Below are positions 39,539-49,260 of a stretch of 64,000 nucleotides of DNA, piece by piece (positions within the stretch are counted from its first letter, which is position 1; every line of letters starts with the position of its first letter). The stretch spans positions 70,367-134,366 of the forward strand of contig CAADVD010000016.1 of the NCBI GenBank assembly GCA_900752435.1. The letters run 5' to 3'. The notes below the pieces were generated by a model. The model was not told where the DNA came from. It saw nothing but the letters and a program-made list of their open reading frames with translations, and made no database searches. The DNA is from Oscillospiraceae bacterium. Lineage in GTDB: Bacteria; Bacillota; Clostridia; Oscillospirales; Ruminococcaceae. The position numbers and the translations under genes are program-made.

Positions 39539-39650
39539 CTGGATTCCCTCTTTCCGTTTTCTTTATCACCAAATTACTCCAAACGAGGGCAATCAATTCC
39601 TCTCGTATGCCTAACGATCATGAAAAAAGTGTCTCACATAAACTGGAATT

Positions 39651-40361
39651 TTACTCATTATACCAATATCCCTTTTCATCCACCCTCCGAGGATGTTCTT
39701 TCAAATAGGGGCTGTTATCTCCCACAAGCCAATAATCACACACAGTATTGTTGGAACAAGTATGTTTCCGGATTAGGCCTGCATGTAAAAGCTCCATAGC
39801 CGGATAATCTCCATTGCAAAATGCGGGCATTAAGTTTAGATAGTTATGCGCTTTTGCAAATTCTGCAATCGGACATTGTTCAAATTGATAGTGTATGCCT
39901 TTCTCTTTGTCATAAGCGTCCACCTTCATAATATATCCACTGGGGATGGCATTCTTTTCATCTTTTTTTGCTGTGGAAACAAAAGCCTGATTCAACAGTC
40001 TCAACACCAGCGGATGATTCGCATTGATCACTTTTCCCAGCAATTGAAACGCCGGAAGGAATGTCTCATTATTCATCTGATACAGTTCATTCATCGACGG
40101 TTTCTCATCCTGTACTTCATAATAAGCAAAGAGCGCAATGCAGTCATAGGTGCCTCCTGTCCCGTTATGTTCGTTTTTCTTCCCTCCCAGATCAGGAAGA
40201 TCTTGCAGAAATTCAACATACTGCATCTGTACTTTTTCCCACATATCTTGAGCCGCTTCTTCAGAATAATGCATCCGAAGGTGTTTCTGTATGACTGTTT
40301 TCACCCGTTTTGAATAGCACACATGTTTTTCTCGGTCAAAGTTTATGCTTTTTTCATCCAT
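39651..40361 (-). CDS. hypothetical Cys-containing protein (possibly ATC-hydrolase-like, from memory); first gene of the low-GC island
   Basis: 236 aa, AT-rich relative to flanking DNA, start after GAGGTGA. Weak family recollection only. Confidence 0.45.
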   Translation of the reverse strand: MDEKSINFDREKHVCYSKRVKTVIQKHLRMHYSEEAAQDMWEKVQMQYVEFLQDLPDLGGKKNEHNGTGGTYDCIALFAYYEVQDEKPSMNELYQMNNETFLPAFQLLGKVINANHPLVLRLLNQAFVSTAKKDEKNAIPSGYIMKVDAYDKEKGIHYQFEQCPIAEFAKAHNYLNLMPAFCNGDYPAMELLHAGLIRKHTCSNNTVCDYWLVGDNSPYLKEHPRRVDEKGYWYNE

Positions 40362-40568
40362 TAACGTTCACCTCAAATTTAGGTCTACTACTTTATTGTA
40401 ACACGTTCTGCTGTTCATTGCCACTACATTCTCTCCGGATGCTCCTCGGATATCCTTGCACAATCGAATGGTCGTACACAACCGAAAACAGCCCACTGCA
40501 ATACAGTGAGCCGTTCCGGAAAAATATCATATTCGCTTTATGAAAAGGCTTTCGCCCAATCACCAAAA

Positions 40569-41111
40569 TTAATAGTTTTGCGCTTTTACTTGGAAGTAAG
40601 CCTGCGGATGTGCGCATACCGGACAGATTCCCGGCGCTTGTTTGCCAATGTGAATGTGACCGCAGTTGGCGCACTGCCAAATGGTGTCGCCGTCCTTGGA
40701 AAAGACCAGTCCGTCTTTGACATTTGCCAACAGCTTGAGGTAACGTTCCTCGTGTTCCTTTTCGATTCGGCCGACCGCTTCAAACAGATACGCAATGTGG
40801 TCAAAGCCTTCCTCTTTGGCTACTTTGGCAAATTCAGCGTACATGTCCGTCCACTCGTAGTTTTCACCGTCCGCCGCGTCTTTCAGATTGGCCGCTGTGT
40901 CCGGAATGCTGCCGTCGTGAAGCAGTTTAAACCAAATTTTCGCATGCTCTTTTTCGTTGTTGGCAGTTTCTTCAAAAATCTGTGCGATTTGAACGAAACC
41001 GTCTTTTCTTGCCTTGGAAGCGTAATAAGTATACTTGTTTCTTGCCTGGCTCTCGCCCGCAAACGCCGCCTGTAAGTTTGCTTCTGTTCTTGAACCTTTT
41101 AATTCCATCAT
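40569..41111 (-). CDS. rbr: rubrerythrin (ferritin-like diiron domain plus C-terminal rubredoxin-like CxxC...CxxC)
   Basis: ExxH diiron motifs and CANCGH...CPVCAHP. Start at the ATGATG after AAAGAGG. Confidence 0.9.
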
Positions 41112-41161
41112 CAAAACCTCTTTCTTTTTTCGCCTATTGTATCGGATTGCCTGTATGTGTG

Positions 41162-41548
41162 CTAATGTCCTTGTTTTTTGCTGCATTCTTTGCAAGTGCC
41201 GTAAAACAACAGCTCGCAGCGCGATACAGCAAAACCAGTCTGTTCAAAGATGGATTCCTCCAGCGATTTCCACTCTGGAAGCTCCACGTCCAACACCGTT
41301 TTGCATTCACTGCAAATCATGTGAAAATGCGGCTGGGTGCATCCATCAAACCGGTCGCTTCCGTTGGGTACGCTGATTTTTAAAATATCGCCGTTTTGCG
41401 CCAACAGATTGAGGTTGCGATAGACGGTACCCAAACTGATGTTGGGCAATTTTTGGCGAATCAGCGCATACACGTCATCGGCCGTTGGATGAATCCGATT
41501 CTGCAGCACGGTCTCCAAAATTAACTCCCGCTGTTTGGAATATTTCAT
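41162..41548 (-). CDS. perR: Fur-family peroxide-responsive repressor (PerR-like)
   Basis: Fur-family HTH, HFHMIC...C and CxxC metal sites. Directly upstream of rubrerythrin. Confidence 0.8.
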
Positions 41549-41571
41549 TCCTCCACCTCCGCTGTTGTTTA

Positions 41572-41602
41572 ATCAATAATAGTAATCATTACTATTATTG
41601 AT
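41572..41602. promoter_or_regulatory. 31-nt perfect palindrome (14-bp arms TCAATAATAGTAAT/ATTACTATTATTGA); putative PerR/Fur box
   Basis: Seen directly, between the perR -10 element and the SD. Confidence 0.5.
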
Positions 41603-41608
41603 GTGTTT

Positions 41609-41637
41609 ATTATATCGCATCCGCATCCGGTTGTCAA
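41609..41637 (-). promoter_or_regulatory. sigma70-type promoter of the perR-rbr operon (TTGACA, 17 nt, TATAAT)
   Basis: Seen directly. Confidence 0.5.
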
Positions 41638-41878
41638 GGAATTTTTTTATTTTTTCTCCTTTATTTTGAGCGATTTTTGTTTTGCCTATACAAGTCTGCA
41701 AATAAAAAGCCAAGAACGAAATGGAAGTACATTCACAAATCTACACGCCGAAAAAATTTTTTCAAAAAATTTTTCCTTCCGTGAAAGTGTCTGAAATGCC
41801 CATTGTTACACAATTGTTTCCTTTTGGTAACCGTCCAATAGTGTCCTTTTGGTAACTACGCCACAATAAAGTGCTTAC

Positions 41879-41907
41879 TTTACAGGTGAAACTTGCCTGC
41901 GTATAAT
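41879..41907 (+). promoter_or_regulatory. sigma70-type promoter (TTTACA, 17 nt, TATAAT) of the FMN-protein/macro/SIR2 operon
   Basis: Seen directly. Preceded by direct repeats CCTTTTGGTAAC at 41820-41831 and 41855-41866. Confidence 0.45.
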
Positions 41908-42017
41908 ATAGACAAGAGCTACAAAGAGCGGCCGCTCCGAAGCCAAAATGACAAACACTTAGAAAGTTCTTGAACTCATTAACACTTTCGCTACTGATGA
42001 TTAGGAGGACAGAAAAG

Positions 42018-42632
42018 ATGGACTATTTACGATATTTAGAACAAGAAATCCATTCCGTCGTTATGGCAACTGTTGATCATACAGGATTGCCTGTTACCTG
42101 TGCCGTTGACATCATGGATAGTGACGAAAAAGGACTGTATTTTCTTACCGCAAAAGGAAAGGGCTTTTATGACCGATTAAAAAAGAACGGCTATGCTGCA
42201 CTAACCGGAATGAAAGGAAATGATACGCTGTCCTGCGTGGCAGTTTCTGTTCGTGGTAAAGTATGTGAGCTTGGGAGTAAACCGCTTCCTAGGTTGTTTG
42301 CAAAAAACAAATATATGAACGAAATCTACCCAACCGAACAATCCCGCAAAGCTCTTACCGTTTTTCAGCTTTATGAGGGCAGCGGAGAATGGTTTGATCT
42401 TTCAAAGAGGCCGATTGAGCGAGCTTCTTTTACAATTGGAGATAAACAAGAAGAAACACAGGGTTATTGGATTACCAAAAAATGTACCGGCTGTGAAGTC
42501 TGCAAAACCGTTTGTCCGCAGGGCTGTATTGATTTTACGGCCGCCCCTGCTATAATAAAACAGGAAAATTGCCTGCATTGCGGTAACTGTTTGGAGATTT
42601 GTCCGCAAGGTGCAGTTGTTCGGAAAGGATAA
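42018..42632 (+). CDS. pyridoxamine-5'-phosphate-oxidase-like FMN-binding split-barrel protein fused to a 2x[4Fe-4S] ferredoxin domain
   Basis: Start after AGGAGG. The C-terminus carries CTGCEVCKTVCP and CLHCGNCLEICP ferredoxin motifs. Confidence 0.7.
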   Translation: MDYLRYLEQEIHSVVMATVDHTGLPVTCAVDIMDSDEKGLYFLTAKGKGFYDRLKKNGYAALTGMKGNDTLSCVAVSVRGKVCELGSKPLPRLFAKNKYMNEIYPTEQSRKALTVFQLYEGSGEWFDLSKRPIERASFTIGDKQEETQGYWITKKCTGCEVCKTVCPQGCIDFTAAPAIIKQENCLHCGNCLEICPQGAVVRKG

Positions 42633-42636
42633 AAAA

Positions 42637-43416
42637 ATGACACAAACCGAAAGAAGAAAGTATTTGATCTCGGCGCTTTTGAAAGAACAGCCACAGTATT
42701 CTAAAATTGAAATTCCGGCGAGTGAGCAGGAACAAAAAGTTCTGCTCCGTTCGCTTTTTAATATTCGTATGGCACAGCCTGTGAGCGATGAATTTTTAGA
42801 AGTGCAGGACACCTATCTGAAAGAGGAAACCAAGAAAAAGGGGATCACTGACCTTGCCGACTTACAGCCTATACAGCAAGGCTTCTATCTTTGGCAAGGT
42901 GATATTACCACGCTTCGGTGTGACGCTATTGTAAATGCTGCCAACAGTCAAATGCTCGGCTGTTTCTATCCAAATCACGGGTGCATTGATAATGCCATTC
43001 ACACTTTTGCGGGGGTGCAGCTGCGTATTTCTTGTGCGGAATTGATGAAAAAACAGGGACACGAAGAAGCGACGGGAAAAGCAAAGATCACGCCTGCCTT
43101 TAATCTGCCCTGTAAATATGTCATCCATACCGTTGGTCCGATTGTTCGTAATAGGCTTACAAAAAAAGACAAGGAGCTGCTTGCGTCTTGCTACCATTCC
43201 TGTCTGGAGCTGGCGGAAAGAAGGGGTGTGAACAGCATTGCGTTTTGCTGTATTTCTACGGGAGAGTTCCATTTTCCCAATGATCAAGCGGCAAAGATTG
43301 CGATACAGACTGTAAAGGCGTACAAAGCACAGACACACAGCGAAATAGAGGTGATTTTCAATGTTTTTAAGGAAATCGATTATAGCATCTACCGAGAACT
43401 GCTCCGAGCAAATTAA
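42637..43416 (+). CDS. macrodomain protein (ADP-ribose-binding/hydrolase; SirTM-associated type)
   Basis: GDITTLRCDAIVNAANSQMLG...HTVGP macro motifs. Start is 5 nt after the upstream stop. Confidence 0.8.
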   Translation: MTQTERRKYLISALLKEQPQYSKIEIPASEQEQKVLLRSLFNIRMAQPVSDEFLEVQDTYLKEETKKKGITDLADLQPIQQGFYLWQGDITTLRCDAIVNAANSQMLGCFYPNHGCIDNAIHTFAGVQLRISCAELMKKQGHEEATGKAKITPAFNLPCKYVIHTVGPIVRNRLTKKDKELLASCYHSCLELAERRGVNSIAFCCISTGEFHFPNDQAAKIAIQTVKAYKAQTHSEIEVIFNVFKEIDYSIYRELLRAN

Positions 43417-44227
43417 CAAGCTGAAAAAAGAGCTCGAAACTGCCGATGCTATCGTAATCGGAGCAGGTGCGGGAATGTCTGCTTCGGCGGGTTTTGCGTA
43501 TGACGGCGAACGGTTCAAACGGTATTTTTCCGACTTTGAAGCAAAATACGGTTTTCACGATATGTATTCCGGCGGATTTTACCCTTATGAAACATTAGAG
43601 GAATACTGGGCGTGGTGGTCGCGGCATATATGGATAAACCGATATGATATTGGTGTTGGAAAACCATATGCCGATTTGCTGGAGCTTATAAAGGACAAGG
43701 ACTATTTTGTGCTTACCACCAACGTGGATCACCAATTCCAGCTTGCCGGTTTTGATAAAAAACGGCTGTTCTATACGCAGGGAGATTACGGCTTGTGGCA
43801 GTGCTCCAAAGCCTGTCACGATCAAACCTATGACAATGAGGACGCCGTGCGAATCATGGTGGCAGAACAAAAGAATATGAAAATCCCCACCAATCGGATT
43901 CCGAAGTGCCCTGTCTGCGGTGCTCCTATGACCATGAACTTACGCTGTGATGATCAATTCGTACAGGATAAAGGCTGGTATGCCGCCGCTGACCGATACG
44001 ATGACTTTATCCGTCGCCACAAAGATTTGCATATTCTGTTTTGGGAAATGGGCGTCGGGTTGAATACTCCTGTTATCATTAAATATCCGTTCTGGCAGAT
44101 GACGGCAAAGAACCCGAAAGCGGTCTATGCCTGCGTCAATGCCGGGGAGACTTATGCTCCAAGGGAAATCAAAGACCGATCCATCTGTATCAATGCAGAT
44201 ATTGGGGAGGTACTGGAACAATTATAA
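43361..44227 (+). CDS. SIR2-family protein, macrodomain-linked (SirTM-like putative protein ADP-ribosyltransferase)
   Basis: GAGAGMSASAG, TTNVDHQ and CPVCG zinc ribbon. The ATG lies 56 nt inside the macro gene, after AGAGGTGA. Confidence 0.8.
   Translation: MFLRKSIIASTENCSEQINKLKKELETADAIVIGAGAGMSASAGFAYDGERFKRYFSDFEAKYGFHDMYSGGFYPYETLEEYWAWWSRHIWINRYDIGVGKPYADLLELIKDKDYFVLTTNVDHQFQLAGFDKKRLFYTQGDYGLWQCSKACHDQTYDNEDAVRIMVAEQKNMKIPTNRIPKCPVCGAPMTMNLRCDDQFVQDKGWYAAADRYDDFIRRHKDLHILFWEMGVGLNTPVIIKYPFWQMTAKNPKAVYACVNAGETYAPREIKDRSICINADIGEVLEQL
44048..44227 (+). repeat. copy 1 (in the intact gene) of the SIR2 3'-end direct repeat
   Basis: About 80 nt are near-identical to 45866-45946 and there is about 70-75% identity to 46766-46930. 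Confidence 0.7.
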
Positions 44228-44430
44228 AACAACAGATTTAATTACACTTCTATGGTGTCATTTATCGTGTCAAACACTGGTTAGAATAATGGGTAGAATC
44301 GATATGCTTTCATTCTATAACTTGGAAAATAGCATTGAATTTGAGTGTAATACTCGCCTACATTTGTGGGCATAATGAAAAATATCAGGTCAAATCGGGT
44401 CGTGATTGGGTCAGAATCGGGTCATGTGCA

Positions 44431-44459
44431 TTGACGCGATTGCCCCGATTTGATATAAT
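44431..44459 (+). promoter_or_regulatory. sigma70-type promoter (TTGACG, 17 nt, TATAAT) for the AlbA_2 gene
   Basis: Seen directly. Upstream direct repeats ATCGGGTC occur twice at 44393-44427. Confidence 0.55.
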
Positions 44460-44493
44460 GTGTCCAGCGAATGAAAGCAAAGGAGATGGTATT

Positions 44494-45843
44494 ATGCTTT
44501 TTCGGGAAAGTGAAACCGTAGAACTGAAGGAAGTAATTGTAGATGATATAAAAAAGGAAATCATTGCTTTTGCTAACTGTGACGGCGGCAAACTGTATAT
44601 AGGTGTCCGGGATGATGGTACAGTCGTTGGCCTTGATGATCCTGACGGCGTTTCTTTACAGATCAGCAATATGGTAAGGGATGCAATCAAGCCCGATGTG
44701 ACGATGTTCCTGCATTATAAAACGATAAAGGAAGATGGAAAAGACCTTGTTGCGGTGGAGATTCAGCGCGGAACGAATCGCCCGTATTATCTTGCTAAAA
44801 AAGGGATGCGGCCAGAAGGCGTATATGTCAGGCAGGGATATTCTTCTGTTCCGGCCACTGACACGGCAATCCGCCATATGATTAAGGAAACGGATGGAGA
44901 CCGCTTTGAGGCTATGCGCTGCTTAAATCAGGAACTTACATTTGAAGCCGCAAAAAAAGAATTTGATCTTCGGGAAGTAGAGTTCGGACCACAGCAAATG
45001 CGTACTTTGAAGCTGATTGATCAAGATAACCTTTATAGCAATTTAGGCCTGCTTCTGTCCGATCAATGCGTCCATACGATTAAAGTCGCTGTTTTTCAGG
45101 GAACAGATCAGACAGTTTTTAAGGATCGCCGGGAATTTTCCGGATCGCTGATGCAGCAAATGAATGAAGTCTATGATTTTATTGACTTCCGTAATCAAAC
45201 CCGTGCAACCATAAAAAAGCTGTATAGAATTGATGTCAGGGACTACCCGGAAATCGCCGTTAGGGAAGCGTTACTAAATCTGCTGGTTCATCGCGATTAT
45301 TCCTTTAGTGCCAGTGCGCTTATCAGTATTTATGATGACCGGATTGAATTTATATCGATTGGCGGATTGATGCCGGGAATTGACCTGGAGGATATTATGG
45401 TAGGCATTTCTGTATGCAGAAACCAGGATCTTGCGAATGTGTTCTACCGGCTGCACTTGATTGAGGCTTATGGTACCGGAATGGGAAAGATTATGAGGGC
45501 ATACGAAGGTATGGAAGAAAAGCCCTTGATTGAAACGACCAAAAATGCCTTTAAGATCATATTGCCTAACATTAACGCAAAATATGAAATGGGAAAGGTT
45601 TCTGCACCGAAAACAGAATCAATCACAAATTCTGTTGCCGGAGCTAAAAAAAGCCTGAGCAATGAAGAAAGAGTATTGGAATATGCTCAGTCTCATGGTG
45701 TTATTACAAGAAATGATGTCATCGAATTGCTTGAAGTAAGTACATCTACCGCTTCCAGAGTTATTCGGAAAATGGTAAAAAACAACTTGCTAAAGCGGAA
45801 TGGAAAAGCAAGAAGCACCAATTACACTGTTATAAAACAGTAA
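44494..45843 (+). CDS. Schlafen/AlbA_2 (divergent AAA) domain protein with C-terminal HATPase-like region and HTH (RecG-like putative transcriptional regulator)
   Basis: N-terminal ...LKEVIVDDIKKEIIAFANCDGGKLYIGV... is typical of AlbA_2. C-terminal winged HTH. Start after AAAGGAGATGG. Confidence 0.75.
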   Translation: MLFRESETVELKEVIVDDIKKEIIAFANCDGGKLYIGVRDDGTVVGLDDPDGVSLQISNMVRDAIKPDVTMFLHYKTIKEDGKDLVAVEIQRGTNRPYYLAKKGMRPEGVYVRQGYSSVPATDTAIRHMIKETDGDRFEAMRCLNQELTFEAAKKEFDLREVEFGPQQMRTLKLIDQDNLYSNLGLLLSDQCVHTIKVAVFQGTDQTVFKDRREFSGSLMQQMNEVYDFIDFRNQTRATIKKLYRIDVRDYPEIAVREALLNLLVHRDYSFSASALISIYDDRIEFISIGGLMPGIDLEDIMVGISVCRNQDLANVFYRLHLIEAYGTGMGKIMRAYEGMEEKPLIETTKNAFKIILPNINAKYEMGKVSAPKTESITNSVAGAKKSLSNEERVLEYAQSHGVITRNDVIELLEVSTSTASRVIRKMVKNNLLKRNGKARSTNYTVIKQ

Positions 45844-45844
45844 A

Positions 45845-46027
45845 ATGGTGCGCAATAAACATAACACCCCTGTTATCATTAAATATCCGTTCTGGCAGAT
45901 GACGGCAAAGAACCCGAAAGCGGTCTATGCCTGCGTCAATGCCGGGGAGGCTTATGTGCCAAAGGAAATCACAGACCGTGCAATCTGTATAAATGGAGAC
46001 ATTGGTCAGATTCTGGAGAAAATATAG
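45845..46027 (+). pseudogene. orphan SIR2 C-terminal fragment (copy 2 of the repeat)
   Basis: 60-aa ORF MVRNKHNTPVIIKYPFWQMTAKNPKAVYACVNAGEAYVPKEITDRAICINGDIGQILEKI aligns with the last ~57 aa of the SIR2 gene. No SD; the ATG is 1 nt after the AlbA_2 stop. Confidence 0.5.
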
Positions 46028-46062
46028 GCGGCGCCTACCATAAGTAAACGCCGCCTCTGTTC

Positions 46063-46329
46063 TTAAAACTGGTCTAAAATATCATGGTGTCCGACATCAA
46101 TGAGGATAATCATTTTGTCGCCCTCGTAGTACCAGATAATGCGGATGTCCATGTTGACGCTGCATTCAAACAAATCTCTGGTGCCTTGGATGCGCTTGGT
46201 GCGTAGGGATGGGTGCATAGGATTCTCAGCTAAAAGCTGCAATTTATTTTAAAGCTGCTTTTTCTCCTGTGCGCTCAGACCTTTAAAGTGTTTTTGAAAC
46301 CGTTTGGTAAAGGTAAACTGGTAGGCCAT
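46063..46329 (-). pseudogene. RelE/ParE-family type II toxin gene disrupted by an in-frame TAA at codon 27
   Basis: Reading through the stop gives MAYQFTFTKRFQKHFKGLSAQEKKQL*NKLQLLAENPMHPSLRTKRIQGTRDLFECSVNMDIRIIWYYEGDKMIILIDVGHHDILDQF, a ParE/RelE fold signature. The ATG overlaps the antitoxin stop (ATGA). Confidence 0.6.
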
Positions 46330-46589
46330 CAATCCGCCTCCAGTTTCGCAAACAGTGCGTCTACACTGTCGAATACGGGCTGTTCGCCGGAGGCAATCTT
46401 TGCTTTTGCCTCGTCAATTTCTCCTCGGAGCTCATCGAGGTACTTTTTCGGATATACGGCAACCGGCATCATGCAGATGGTTCCGTCCTGCTCGAAAATG
46501 TCCAGCATATCGCCTTCAGATAGTCCCAGTTTTACGATGATTTCTTTGGGGATGGTAATCTGTGACTTCTGACGTAATTCGGCCAGCAT
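46329..46589 (-). CDS. AbrB/MazE (SpoVT_AbrB)-type antitoxin
   Basis: SQITIPKEIIVKLGLSEGDML swapped-hairpin motif, SD AAGGAGATG, directly upstream of the toxin remnant. Confidence 0.7.
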   Translation of the reverse strand: MLAELRQKSQITIPKEIIVKLGLSEGDMLDIFEQDGTICMMPVAVYPKKYLDELRGEIDEAKAKIASGEQPVFDSVDALFAKLEAD

Positions 46590-46744
46590 ACAATCATCTC
46601 CTTTGCTGCAAGAGTGAAAGTAGGAATTTCTAACTTTCTTACTTATAGTATATCCACTTTTGGAGGATTATGCAAGAGAATGCGAAAAAATTCACAAAGT
46701 AAAACAATATTATTCCACGTAAAAGGCATGAATGGTTTCATAAA

Positions 46745-46930
46745 ATGGCGCGCAATAAACACAGCACCCCTGTTATCATTAAATATCCGTTCTGGCAGAT
46801 GACGGCCCAAAACAGGAAAGCCACCTATGCTTGTATCAACTTCGAACAGGCTGTCTGCCCGAAAGAGATTCAAGGGCAGTCTATCTGCATTGACAGCGAC
46901 ATCGGAAGCGTCTTAAATGCTCTAAAATAA
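46745..46930 (+). pseudogene. orphan SIR2 C-terminal fragment (copy 3 of the repeat)
   Basis: 61-aa ORF MARNKHSTPVIIKYPFWQMTAQNRKATYACINFEQAVCPKEIQGQSICIDSDIGSVLNALK. No SD. Confidence 0.5.
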
Positions 46931-47232
46931 GAGAGCGGCAAAGAAAAAGGGCGCTGCCAAAACGACAGCGCCGCAACACAAAAGAAAGGAAGAATGGAAG
47001 GGTAAACAGTCCACAGAAACAAATTGTCCGTATTGCGTCATTTTTTCATTGAAAAAGATTGAAAAATTTTTCATTTTATGCTTAAATGAAAAAGGTACAA
47101 TGCAGTTTCAAACAACACAATTGACAATTCATTTTTGAGTACATCCATAGTATAACACAAACACCCCCATGAGTTTGTCGAAAAACTGTATGTTTATCAT
47201 GAAATTTTTATGACCGAAAGGAAACTTTTCCG

Positions 47233-48396
47233 ATGCTCATTCTAAACGCCAACATCCTCTCCATGGAAAAACACAATTACCCAAACGGGTATTTGCACAT
47301 TCAAGACGGCCTCATCCAAGCGGTCGGCGACATGCAGAGTCTTACCATTGAAGATGCCGAAACACTGGATGTGCAGGGCGCAACCGTCATTCCCGGCTTG
47401 ATTGACGCACATTCTCATTTGGGCATGTGGGAGGACGGCTTGGGCTTCGAGGGAGATGACGGCAACGAGGAAACCGACCCGGTCACGCCGCAAATGCGCG
47501 CCATCGACGCGGTCAATCCGGCTGACCGGTGCTTTACGGAAGCGCTTCAAGCCGGTATCACCACCGTGCTGACGGGACCGGGCAGCGCCAACCCGATTTC
47601 CGGTGTGTGGTGTGCCATGAAAACCTATGGCCGCCGCATTGACGATATGCTTCTTCAAGCGCAGGCCGGTATGAAGTTCAGCCTCGGCGAAAATCCCAAA
47701 AGCGTTTACAACGGCAAAAATGAAACGCCCATGACGCGCATGGCGACCGCCGCCCTTATCCGCGAACAGCTTGAAAAAGCCAGACGTTACATGCAGGACG
47801 TCAAACGCGCCAAAAAAGAGCATGAAGATCCACCGGAATATGATATTAAGTGCGAAGCGCTGATTCCGGTTCTGAAGCGCAAAATGAAAGCGTTTTTCCA
47901 CGCTCACCGCGCGGACGATATCTTTACAGCCATTCGCATCGCAAAAGAATTTGAACTCGATTATGTCATTGTTCACGGTACGGAAGGCTACCAAATTGCC
48001 GATATTCTGGCGGCAGAACAGACGCGTGTCATCGCCGGTCCGATTCTCTGTGACCGCTCGAAGCCGGAACTGCGCAATCTGAACATTGAAAATCCGGCCA
48101 TCTTAGCCGCGCACGACGTCACCACCGCCATTTGCACCGACCATCCGGTGATTCCGATTCAATATCTGCCGCTGACCGGCGGCATTGCCGTCAGGGCTGG
48201 ATTGGATGCAGACAAAGCACTTGCCATGATGACCAGCGTTCCGGCAAAAATTTGTGGCATCGACAAGCGCGTCGGCTCCATCAAGCCGGGCAAAGACGCC
48301 GATTTGCTGATTTACCGCGGCGATTTGCTCAATGTTTATTTCAATCCCGACTATGTACTGATAAACGGCGAAATTGTCGTCAACAATAAGAAGTAG
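47233..48396 (+). CDS. metal-dependent amidohydrolase-family protein
   Basis: IDAHSH metal-binding motif and a TIM-barrel amidohydrolase layout. Confidence 0.8.
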   Translation: MLILNANILSMEKHNYPNGYLHIQDGLIQAVGDMQSLTIEDAETLDVQGATVIPGLIDAHSHLGMWEDGLGFEGDDGNEETDPVTPQMRAIDAVNPADRCFTEALQAGITTVLTGPGSANPISGVWCAMKTYGRRIDDMLLQAQAGMKFSLGENPKSVYNGKNETPMTRMATAALIREQLEKARRYMQDVKRAKKEHEDPPEYDIKCEALIPVLKRKMKAFFHAHRADDIFTAIRIAKEFELDYVIVHGTEGYQIADILAAEQTRVIAGPILCDRSKPELRNLNIENPAILAAHDVTTAICTDHPVIPIQYLPLTGGIAVRAGLDADKALAMMTSVPAKICGIDKRVGSIKPGKDADLLIYRGDLLNVYFNPDYVLINGEIVVNNKK

Positions 48397-48414
48397 GAAA
48401 AGAGTTGTGCTAGC

Positions 48415-49260
48415 ATGAAAGAAATTCATACCGACCTCATTACCAAAACGATACGCGACCTGTGCATTCAGGCCAATATGGTGCTTCCCTGTGATTTGAA
48501 CGCGCTCATTGACCACAGTAGAGAAACCGAGCAGTTTGATTTGGCAAAAAGCGTGCTGTCCGATATTTCCGACAACATCACCTGCGCCAAGGAAATCAAT
48601 GTTCCCATTTGTCAGGATACCGGCATGGCGGTGGTGTTCATGGAGCTTGGTCAGGACGTACATTTGGTCGGAAAAAGCTTGGATGAAGCCGTCAACGAGG
48701 GCGTTCGCCAGGGCTATCTGGAGGGCAAGCTGCGCTGTTCCATCGTTTCCGATCCGCTGCGCCGCGTCAATACCGGCGACAATACGCCTGCCGTACTGCA
48801 TCTGCACCTGGTGGACGGCGAACGCATTCACATCACCGTTGCACCCAAAGGCTTCGGCAGTGAAAACATGAGCGCCATGCGCATGTTCACCCCGTCCGCC
48901 ACACCGGACGACATTGTCCATTACGTTGTCCGTCAAATCGAAATTGCCGGTTCCAATCCCTGCCCGCCGATGGTGATTGGCGTGGGTATTGGCGGCGACT
49001 TTGAAAAGTGCGCGTATTTGGCGAAAAAGGCACTTTGCCGCGCGGTATCCGAGCACAATCCGGATCCGTTTTACGCCGATATGGAAGCGCGGATGCTCGA
49101 GGGCATTAACGCGCTCGGCATTGGTCCGCAGGGCTTCGGCGGTACGACCACCGCGTTGGCTGTCAACATCGAAACCTACCCCACCCACATTGCCGGACTG
49201 CCCGTTGCCATCAACGTCGGCTGTCACGTCACCCGTCATGCCAGCGCAGTCATCGAATAA
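48415..49260 (+). CDS. Fe-S hydro-lyase (class I fumarate hydratase / L(+)-tartrate dehydratase) alpha subunit
   Basis: CQDTGM...C...C cluster-binding motifs of FumA/TtdA N-terminal-domain type. No beta-subunit gene follows. Confidence 0.85.
   Translation: MKEIHTDLITKTIRDLCIQANMVLPCDLNALIDHSRETEQFDLAKSVLSDISDNITCAKEINVPICQDTGMAVVFMELGQDVHLVGKSLDEAVNEGVRQGYLEGKLRCSIVSDPLRRVNTGDNTPAVLHLHLVDGERIHITVAPKGFGSENMSAMRMFTPSATPDDIVHYVVRQIEIAGSNPCPPMVIGVGIGGDFEKCAYLAKKALCRAVSEHNPDPFYADMEARMLEGINALGIGPQGFGGTTTALAVNIETYPTHIAGLPVAINVGCHVTRHASAVIE

Follow-up and report, generated by a model that had tools for sequence, protein, structure and literature searches.

An operon joining a PNPOx-like iron-sulfur protein to a Zn-Macro/SirTM pair in an Oscillospiraceae bacterium and its relatives: a candidate redox-stress module of gut anaerobes

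We analyzed a stretch of 64,000 nucleotides (nt) from an Oscillospiraceae bacterium (contig CAADVD010000016.1, positions 70,367 to 134,366 of the forward strand, assembly GCA_900752435.1), hereafter the window, to which all coordinates refer, and in it a three-gene operon predicted to encode a flavin/iron-sulfur (Fe-S) type protein, a zinc-dependent macrodomain (Zn-Macro) and a class-M sirtuin (SirTM). All three genes lie on the plus strand. Gene 1 (42018–42632; 204 amino acid residues), encoding a PNPOx-like/2x[4Fe-4S] protein, starts at the ATG at 42018, with an AGGAGG sequence 8 nt upstream; gene 2 (42637–43416; 259 residues), encoding the Zn-Macro, starts at the ATG at 42637, 4 nt past the stop codon of gene 1; and gene 3 (43361–44227; 288 residues), encoding the SirTM, starts at the ATG at 43361, preceded by GAGGTG and located inside gene 2, with an overlap of 56 nt. 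The genes are co-oriented and the only promoter-like site of the module precedes gene 1; genes 1 to 3 form a single translationally coupled operon. An earlier note on this DNA had described the three plus-strand genes, the promoter, the peptide motifs and the overlap, and all of these features were found where it had placed them.

The enzymes of this module can be identified with high confidence from sequence and motif comparisons. Gene 2 matches the Pfam family Macro (1.6e-40) and, over residues 2–257, the NCBIfam model NF003163 of protein-ADP-ribose hydrolases (379.6 bits versus a cut-off of 272). Its matches in the PDB are 5kiv/8rsl (Staphylococcus aureus, 2e-83) and 8rsi, the alignment with 5kiv spanning residues 5–257, and it resembles the SirTM-linked macrodomains of S. 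aureus and Streptococcus pyogenes over the full length (~1e-80). We were also able to identify the three motifs that define Zn-Macros (PMC11490716), namely NAAN (VNAANS), Cx4HxC (CFYPNHGC) and Dx3H (DNAIH), and homology suggests the presence of the N-terminal three-helix extension of the Zn-Macro type. The macrodomain previously recognized in gene 2 can be specified, by NF003163, the PDB matches and the motifs, as a SirTM-linked zinc-dependent macrodomain, the putative eraser partner of SirTM.

The sequence matches of gene 3 in the PDB are solely 5a3a, the SirTM of S. pyogenes (5e-78, 43% identity over 269 columns), and 8rsn, a fungal Macro-SirTM fusion. Residues N121, Q140-G141 and R195 of gene 3 align to N118, Q137 and R192, the catalytic residues described for S. 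pyogenes SirTM (PMC8120803), and the QG pair replaces the catalytic HG of sirtuins. Across 31 diverse SirTMs, N121 and G141 hardly vary; Q140 and R195 are invariant in an alignment of eight sequences, and the zinc cysteines (C148, C152, C183 and C186) are likewise nearly constant among diverse SirTMs. The SIR2 family of Pfam was not matched by gene 3, and the NCBIfam models of CobB/NAD-dependent deacylases gave E 6e-6 and ~25 bits versus cut-offs of 221–252. We assign gene 3 as a class-M sirtuin with catalytic residues of the ADP-ribosyltransferase type; the match to 5a3a, the QG pair and deacylase models far under their cut-offs are in line with the earlier proposal that the SIR2 protein is a true SirTM and not a CobB-type deacylase.

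In the protein encoded by gene 1, residues 7–117 match Pfam PNPOx_N (PF01243; 38.4 bits versus a cut-off of 28.1) and residues 147–200 match Fer4 families, with the ferredoxin motifs CTGCEVCKTVCP and CLHCGNCLEICP; with Macro in gene 2, these were the matches obtained in the profile searches that had been proposed for the three proteins, the SIR2 model being the one that found no match. The top PDB sequence match is 2hhz (1.9e-11), which is also the top fold match of the AlphaFold2 model (pLDDT 87.9; Foldseek E 1e-9, TM 0.75 on the target), and the other top fold matches are GS26-like proteins, NimA/C and PNPOx barrels. The fold search with this model retrieved no solved structure in which a split barrel is fused to a ferredoxin in this way. 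The cysteines of the two CxxCxxCxxxCP motifs (C156, C159, C162, C166-P and C185, C188, C191, C195-P) are invariant in 25 homologues, and so are the non-cluster cysteines C28 and C170. Gene 1 encodes a PNPOx-like split-barrel domain of the flavin type, which may bind flavin, fused to a 2x[4Fe-4S] ferredoxin domain. A 2x[4Fe-4S] ferredoxin fused to a small flavoenzyme also occurs, in another anaerobe, in NR1, NR2 and NR3 of Giardia (PMC7938412); nevertheless, those proteins have the nitroreductase fold and an N-terminal ferredoxin, whereas the gene 1 protein has a PNPOx-like barrel, related in fold to the split-barrel proteins NimA and NimC, and a C-terminal ferredoxin.

For comparison with relatives, one genome per species was scanned and at least 591 genomes with a relative of the window SirTM were found; the loci analyzed are the best 80 of these, with SirTMs 62–80% identical to that of the window, and represent its closest relatives and not the whole SirTM family. 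They include Oscillospiraceae, Lachnospiraceae, Ruminococcus, Spirochaetales and Megasphaera, and no Staphylococcus/Streptococcus-type operon that could act as a positive control. Genes at these loci were counted by tblastn with defined queries, since longest open reading frame (ORF) calling gave antisense artefacts (families F5, F14, F24 and F26). The loci of relatives are labeled L001, L002 and so on, L001 being a contig of the same species with 98% nucleotide identity to the window.

Macro is directly upstream of SirTM in 64 of 66 related loci, and the synteny check that had been proposed, when run, showed the order gene 1, Macro, SirTM in three homologue neighbourhoods (75–99% identical) located in three different and unrelated chromosomal contexts. 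Gene 1 stands immediately before Macro in 35 of the 75 loci with enough upstream sequence (26 of them with at least 54% identity) and within 7 kb upstream in 40 of the 75, and divergent versions of gene 1 (33–47% identity) also adjoin Macro. In the reverse test, for which 80 metagenome loci with gene 1 relatives 65–82% identical were sampled, Macro was the next gene after gene 1 in 73 of 77 loci and SirTM was present too in 60 of the 66 with enough downstream sequence. In 111 of 114 loci, the start of Macro lies −14 to +10 nt from the stop of gene 1, 4 nt being the commonest spacing. The gene-neighbourhood comparison suggested by the earlier note shows in both directions that the flavin/Fe-S gene co-occurs with the pair. 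These data argue for gene 1 being a conserved, tightly coupled companion of the Macro/SirTM pair and not a chance neighbour. Its presence is nonetheless facultative, as about half of the closely related pairs are without it and bare pairs are found directly behind the same promoter or behind hxlR (for example in L022, L034 and L064), and patchy on the SirTM tree, with a nearest-neighbour concordance of 52/76 versus a chance expectation of 50%. Close relatives of gene 1, as sampled, nearly always adjoin the pair; the pair is often without gene 1.

Upstream of gene 1, on the plus strand, the region 41816–41907 corresponds to the putative operator/promoter of the module and is a conserved block in other species. 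It contains two GTKTCCTTTTGGTAAC repeats (41816–41831 and 41841–41856), a CAC-AATAAA-GTG inverted repeat that reaches the −35 box, and the promoter itself, TTTACA (41879–41884) and TATAAT (41902–41907) with a 17-nt spacer, an 11/12 match. Promoter-like matches are as such not enriched in the region (12 found versus 13.5 expected from shuffled sequence). The same block (GTTACC-N4-GGTAAC, AGCAC-N6-GTGCT overlapping the −35 box, and TTTACA-N17-TATAAT) precedes the module in L001, L003 and L006, in unrelated contexts, and was found, at no more than three mismatches to an 18-nt core, in 36 of the 80 species loci, including loci without an adjacent regulator. Because the promoter and the operator-like repeats are conserved before the module in other species, the promoter at 41879–41907 is very probably real. 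We also noticed, in the leader (41914–41946), a conserved stretch AGAGCTRCRRAGARCGGCCGYTSCGAA with a GC-rich palindrome, likewise present in L001, L003, L006 and many of L009–L088, which could be a regulatory RNA or a protein-binding element; an Rfam search of 41550–42100 retrieved no known RNA element, the sole match being a chance miRNA (E 0.41).

Regulators and accessory genes were counted in the 66 loci with at least 3 kb of sequence upstream of Macro/SirTM. A divergent HxlR-family regulator, 75–92% identical across families, is present in 35 of these loci and an Rrf2 regulator in 12 (HxlR or Rrf2 in 47), an association with a mosaic of reductase genes that the window by itself does not reveal. 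The accessory genes form a mosaic: a NAD_binding_10/NmrA-like gene (19 loci), a 264-residue protein with no Pfam match (family F7; 12 loci), a PNPOx-only gene (11), a double SnoaL_2 gene (6), a radical SAM-SPASM gene (6), a nitroreductase gene (3) and a DUF1848 gene (3), with eight loci having a bare pair, that is, none of the listed accessory or regulator genes. The F7 protein is encoded just before gene 1 or Macro in L012, L014, L019, L009, L011, L013, L050 and others. A second module type (L043, L057, L062, L067, L079 and L081) combines radical SAM-SPASM and nitroreductase genes with a divergent PNPOx-like/Fe-S gene (33–38% identical) and Macro/SirTM, whose order is swapped in L079.

The HxlR proteins adjoining the modules carry a CPVE motif. 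Regulators of this type (MarR/DUF24) were described as controlling azoreductase, nitroreductase and flavin oxidoreductase genes and as using a conserved N-terminal cysteine to sense diamide, quinones, aldehydes and hypochlorite (PMC3351151). The related modules share with the MarR/DUF24 regulons of Bacillus subtilis (YodB, CatR and HypR, acting on AzoR1, YodC, CatE and HypO; PMC3351151) the Cys-Pro-Val-Glu motif, a divergent HxlR gene beside genes of the flavin reductase/nitroreductase type, and a palindromic operator over the promoter. However, ADP-ribosylation enzymes are not known in the B. subtilis regulons, and the window lacks the regulator gene. An HxlR-type regulator is predicted to bind the operator of the module.

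Oxidative stress induces the canonical SirTM operon, which has two flavin oxidoreductases at its flanks and encodes GcvH-L, the sole known substrate of SirTM (PMC4518038; PMC11490716). Against the 64-kb window, Escherichia coli GcvH and LplA gave best tblastn E values of 3.4 and 0.48, and phmmer retrieved nothing at E ≤ 1. The Pfam families GCV_H, lipoate-ligase, luciferase-like and OYE are not recorded within 10 kb on either side in contigs with an identical SirTM, and our profile scan, which covered 10 kb on either side, did not find LLM (PF00296) or OYE (PF00724) among the Pfam families of the genes. The earlier statement that carrier and ligase are absent from at least 5 kb around the module agrees with this. 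Neither did E. coli GcvH and LplA match in the best 80 related loci; for the window as for these loci, the two queries have limited power towards divergent GcvH-L, and the search had no positive control. Downstream of the window SirTM there is an inserted cassette and then an amidohydrolase gene, not LplA2. The module is not an extended operon, as it has no GcvH-like gene before Macro and no LplA2 after SirTM, nor is it a minimal one, given the third co-oriented gene 4 nt upstream of Macro.

Zn-Macro/SirTM pairs without GcvH-L/LplA2 had already been described (Rack 2015, PMC4518038; Ariza 2024, PMC11490716), and the label "non-canonical", which the absence of these two genes had suggested, cannot be kept, since lone pairs were published in both 2015 and 2024. 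Carriers of stand-alone pairs are Clostridiaceae, Lachnospiraceae, Enterococcaceae, Spirochaetaceae, Veillonellaceae and archaea (PMC4518038; PMC11490716), with Clostridiaceae, Lachnospiraceae, Spirochaetaceae and Veillonellaceae listed in PMC4518038; the targets of such pairs are stated to be unknown (PMC4518038; PMC11490716), and macrodomains from lone pairs do not demodify GcvH-L (PMC11490716). The suggestion that the flavin/Fe-S gene takes the place of the carrier holds for its position. It does not extend to a functional replacement, because gene 1 is facultative and about half of the related pairs are without it.

The window module has the same two enzymes as the extended operon found in S. 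aureus and S. pyogenes (GcvH-L, Zn-Macro, SirTM plus LplA2, with LLM and OYE nearby; PMC4518038; PMC11490716), with the same catalytic and zinc motifs, Macro-then-SirTM order and overlapping reading frames, and in both a gene for a small protein stands right before Macro with almost no non-coding DNA; both module types are also tied to flavin oxidoreductases and oxidative-stress biology. They differ in that the window lacks GcvH-L, LplA2, LLM and OYE within 10 kb and has the PNPOx-like/2x[4Fe-4S] gene upstream, that the accessories are interchangeable here (NmrA-like, nitroreductase, PNPOx-only, SnoaL_2 and radical SAM genes), and that this module type has HxlR/Rrf2 regulator genes, a conserved operator and strict gut anaerobes as hosts. 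The minimal operons (present, for example, in Methanobrevibacter oralis, Enterococcus faecalis, Treponema pedis and Clostridium bolteae; PMC11490716; PMC4518038) have the same writer/eraser pair without lipoyl carrier; in contrast to them, the pair is here, judging by the layout, co-transcribed with a dedicated flavin/Fe-S protein, to which it is translationally coupled, and redox regulators and/or reductase genes accompany the pair in ~80% of the related loci.

On the other side of the promoter, on the minus strand, there are a PerR-like gene of the Fur family (41162–41548; Pfam FUR, 1.7e-28) and a rubrerythrin gene (40569–41195; Pfam Rubrerythrin, 6.5e-27). The adjacency of the module to perR-rubrerythrin, which the earlier note had pointed out, is real but specific to this species, as no Fur-family or rubrerythrin gene was found upstream of SirTM in any of the 66 related species loci (0/66). 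A redox connection, as had been proposed for the target or partner of SirTM, is plausible; a partner role for perR-rubrerythrin is ruled out by the same count. Upstream of these two genes we observed a palindrome (41573–41601) with perfect 14-nt arms, TCAATAATAGTAAT-C-ATTACTATTATTGA, next to a minus-strand promoter with a 12/12 match (41637–41609). The palindrome looks like an autoregulatory box of the Fur/PerR type. The whole region 39600–47200, comprising an ATC_hydrolase-like gene, rubrerythrin, perR, the SirTM module and the cassettes described below, has a GC content of 43% versus ~49% in the flanks, consistent with a foreign origin.

The operon differs by one gene between strains: L001 and L002, of the same species, have a double SnoaL_2 gene coding for 257 residues between the promoter and gene 1 (region 5089–5984 in L001), in place of which the window has 55 bp (41947–42001). 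Other species too (for example L010, L018 and L032) have the operon of three genes in which gene 1 comes straight after the promoter. L001 also lacks an insert of 2.66 kb that follows SirTM in the window and that consists of two cassettes in tandem, of 1.8 kb (AlbA_2/HATPase_c_4) and 0.9 kb (MazE-type toxin-antitoxin pair). Cassette A (44107–45862, plus strand) provides a replacement SirTM 3′ end (to 44227), contains an AlbA_2(Schlafen-like)/HATPase_c_4/winged helix-turn-helix gene (44494–45843, plus strand) and ends with GCGCAATAAACATAACAC. Cassette B (45863–46762) contains a displaced SirTM 3′ fragment (45863–46026) as well as genes for a MazE-like antitoxin (46329–46589, minus strand) and a short toxin-like ORF (46063–46242, minus strand) and ends with GCGCAATAAACACAGCAC. 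It is followed by the displaced ancestral SirTM 3′ end (46763–46930, plus strand), which matches L001 collinearly over the end of SirTM and the genes that follow, 46766–48500 of the window aligning to 8047–9781 of L001 at 98.7%.

The last ~40 codons of the window SirTM (from 44107) are cassette-derived and, compared with L001, its 3′ end is a chimera. Three copies of the terminal 164 nt of the gene are present, at 44063–44226 (the intact end), 45863–46026 (88%) and 46763–46926 (63%; ancestral, matching L001), and each displaced copy is preceded by GCGCAATAAACAYARCAC, a junction motif also present before SirTM 3′ fragments in four other lineages (L006–L008, L035, L037 and L071). An insertion hot spot is delimited by 44063–46930 in the window and recurs in L006–L008, L035, L037, L058 and L071: the cassettes end in the conserved motif GCGCAATAAACAWAACAC, leave displaced and partly decayed 3′ fragments downstream, and carry AlbA_2/HATPase_c_4, AAA_14-DUF4143, AbiEii or toxin-antitoxin pairs of the ParE or MazE type. 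No integrase was found among the cassette cargo genes, and no viral contig matched with both the junction motif and the SirTM core. Cassette A, absent in L001, is 81–88% identical at the nucleotide level to the cassettes in the same position in L035, L058 and L071, and cassette B has 70% nucleotide identity to the cassette of L006/L008. Because the 81–88% nucleotide identity of the AlbA_2 cassettes exceeds that between the SirTM proteins of their hosts (60–70%), the cassettes are mobile, apparently non-autonomous elements that target SirTM codons ~234–236 and restore the gene, and they are reminiscent of non-autonomous integrative elements that accumulate at gene 3′ ends. Cassette A is not part of the operon function; since cassette insertion explains the defence-like genes next to SirTM, a shared function is not implied.

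We hypothesize that the three-gene operon belongs to a module of gut anaerobes that has a mosaic make-up, was spread by horizontal transfer and serves in redox or electrophile stress, an overall explanation to which we give about an even chance. That it is a redox-stress operon seems rather probable; that gene 1 is a functional companion, that is, a co-regulated effector, rather than a modified substrate has again about an even chance and is the likelier of the two roles. Oxidant or electrophile stress would release a thiol-sensing regulator of the HxlR type from the operator and the operon would be expressed. The gene 1 protein would transfer low-potential electrons via its two clusters to the flavin, with reduction of the toxic oxidant or electrophile, and may thereby be a ferredoxin-linked flavin reductase, the counterpart of the OYE/LLM flavoenzymes by the SirTM operon of Staphylococcus and Streptococcus. 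SirTM would use NAD+ to mono-ADP-ribosylate a protein of the redox pathway and the Zn-Macro would remove this mark.

Some observations speak against this explanation or narrow its basis. Split barrels of the gene 1 type are able to bind FMN, heme or F420, and regulation in the window is inferred from the operator, because no hxlR or rrf2 gene was found within its 64 kb. The 80 genome loci are the closest relatives only (62–80% identity) and not the whole SirTM family, and the metagenome sample is redundant, with many near-identical loci. Moreover, that gene 1 is found almost exclusively with the pair, and in a GcvH-L-like position, fits at least as well the possibility, which we regard as tentative and on balance doubtful, that the gene 1 protein is itself the physiological target of SirTM and occupies the slot of GcvH-L. 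Reversible mono-ADP-ribosylation on an acidic residue or on an extra invariant cysteine would then switch electron transfer, similarly to DraT/DraG, in which an NAD+-dependent ADP-ribosyltransferase and a hydrolase reversibly switch the nitrogenase Fe protein, a [4Fe-4S] electron-transfer protein. The analogy is functional only, as DraT/DraG have ART and ARH folds and an arginine target, whereas the module has a sirtuin and a macrodomain. Gene 1 precedes Macro immediately, as GcvH-L does in the canonical operon (PMC11490716), with the 4-nt or overlapping junction kept in 111 of 114 loci; close relatives of gene 1 are rarely encoded outside Macro/SirTM loci (73/77 adjoin Macro), even divergent versions (33–47% identity) still adjoin Macro, and the only known SirTM substrate is operon-encoded. 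Zn-Macros are also able to cleave Cys-ADP-ribose, and C28 and C170 would be available as invariant non-cluster cysteines. Nevertheless, 40 of the 75 pairs are without gene 1 directly before Macro and 35 of the 75 without it within 7 kb upstream, bare pairs stand behind the same promoter or hxlR (for example in L022, L034 and L064), gene 1 is patchy on the SirTM tree (nearest-neighbour concordance 52/76 versus 50% expected by chance), and the flavoenzymes of the canonical operon are not substrates of SirTM (PMC4518038).

The remaining alternatives give the pair a different role altogether. A selfish module of the toxin-antitoxin type, with SirTM as toxin, the macrodomain as antidote as in DarT/DarG, and redox genes hitch-hiking on a mobile island, would account for the overlap of genes 2 and 3, for a patchy distribution consistent with horizontal transfer (HxlR proteins 75–92% identical across families; 43% versus 49% GC) and for the toxin-antitoxin and defence-like cassettes close by. 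We consider it improbable, as these cassettes are independent insertions absent in L001, the pair is part of an operon that is regulated, has a conserved operator and also encodes metabolic enzymes, PADLOC is not matched, and the characterized SirTM/Zn-Macro pairs have a specific carrier protein as their target in the response to stress (PMC4518038; PMC11490716). Still less probable is an anti-phage SIR2 system acting by NAD+ depletion (defence-type SIR2 systems being Thoeris, DSR, SIR2-HerA and SIR2-pAgo), which the earlier note had left standing as an alternative and for which we found no support: SIR2 domains are common among defence effectors, and defence-like genes are present just past SirTM (AlbA_2/HATPase_c_4 here; AbiEii and AAA_14 in related loci), but a comparison with 5027 PADLOC models gave no match (E ≤ 0.01) for SirTM or for Macro, the genes downstream vary between strains, as insertions in the SirTM 3′ end, and are not conserved partners, and gene 3 is 43% identical to a characterized protein ADP-ribosyltransferase and shares its catalytic residues. 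As for an ordinary CobB-type deacylase lying by chance beside an unrelated macrodomain, the weak matches to deacylase models (E 6e-6, ~25 bits) are ~ten-fold under the curated cut-offs, and the lack of a Pfam SIR2 match, the QG in place of the catalytic HG, PDB sequence matches restricted to SirTM and the fungal Macro-SirTM fusion, and the adjacent Macro in 64 of 66 related loci make it hardly conceivable.

The enzymes and the lone-pair arrangement are already known. The flavin/Fe-S companion, the HxlR/Rrf2 association, the conserved operator and the interchangeable reductase set are apparently unreported: the SirTM papers, their supplements and full-text searches yielded no link of SirTM with pyridoxamine-oxidase-like, ferredoxin, HxlR or nitroreductase partners, and "unreported" is provisional, as the coverage was incomplete. 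The locus and its relatives give testable candidates in the search for the targets of lone SirTM pairs, namely gene 1, the operator/regulator family and the reductase set, and the arrangement is also found in cultured strains, among them Massiliimalia massiliensis Marseille-P2963T (L014), Guopingia tenuis NSJ-63 (L041) and Ruminococcus flavefaciens FD-1 (L042). If the gene 1 protein is not a substrate of SirTM, this remains a useful description of operon context. If it is, a second SirTM substrate would be known and, for the first time, one outside lipoate biology; through its sirtuin, the module would then switch an iron-sulfur flavoprotein by reversible ADP-ribosylation and control the flow of low-potential electrons under oxidant or electrophile stress, in functional parallel to DraT/DraG. 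Under the redox-stress explanation, the connection of SirTM with redox stress would hold not just in aerobic-tolerant pathogens but also in strict gut anaerobes.

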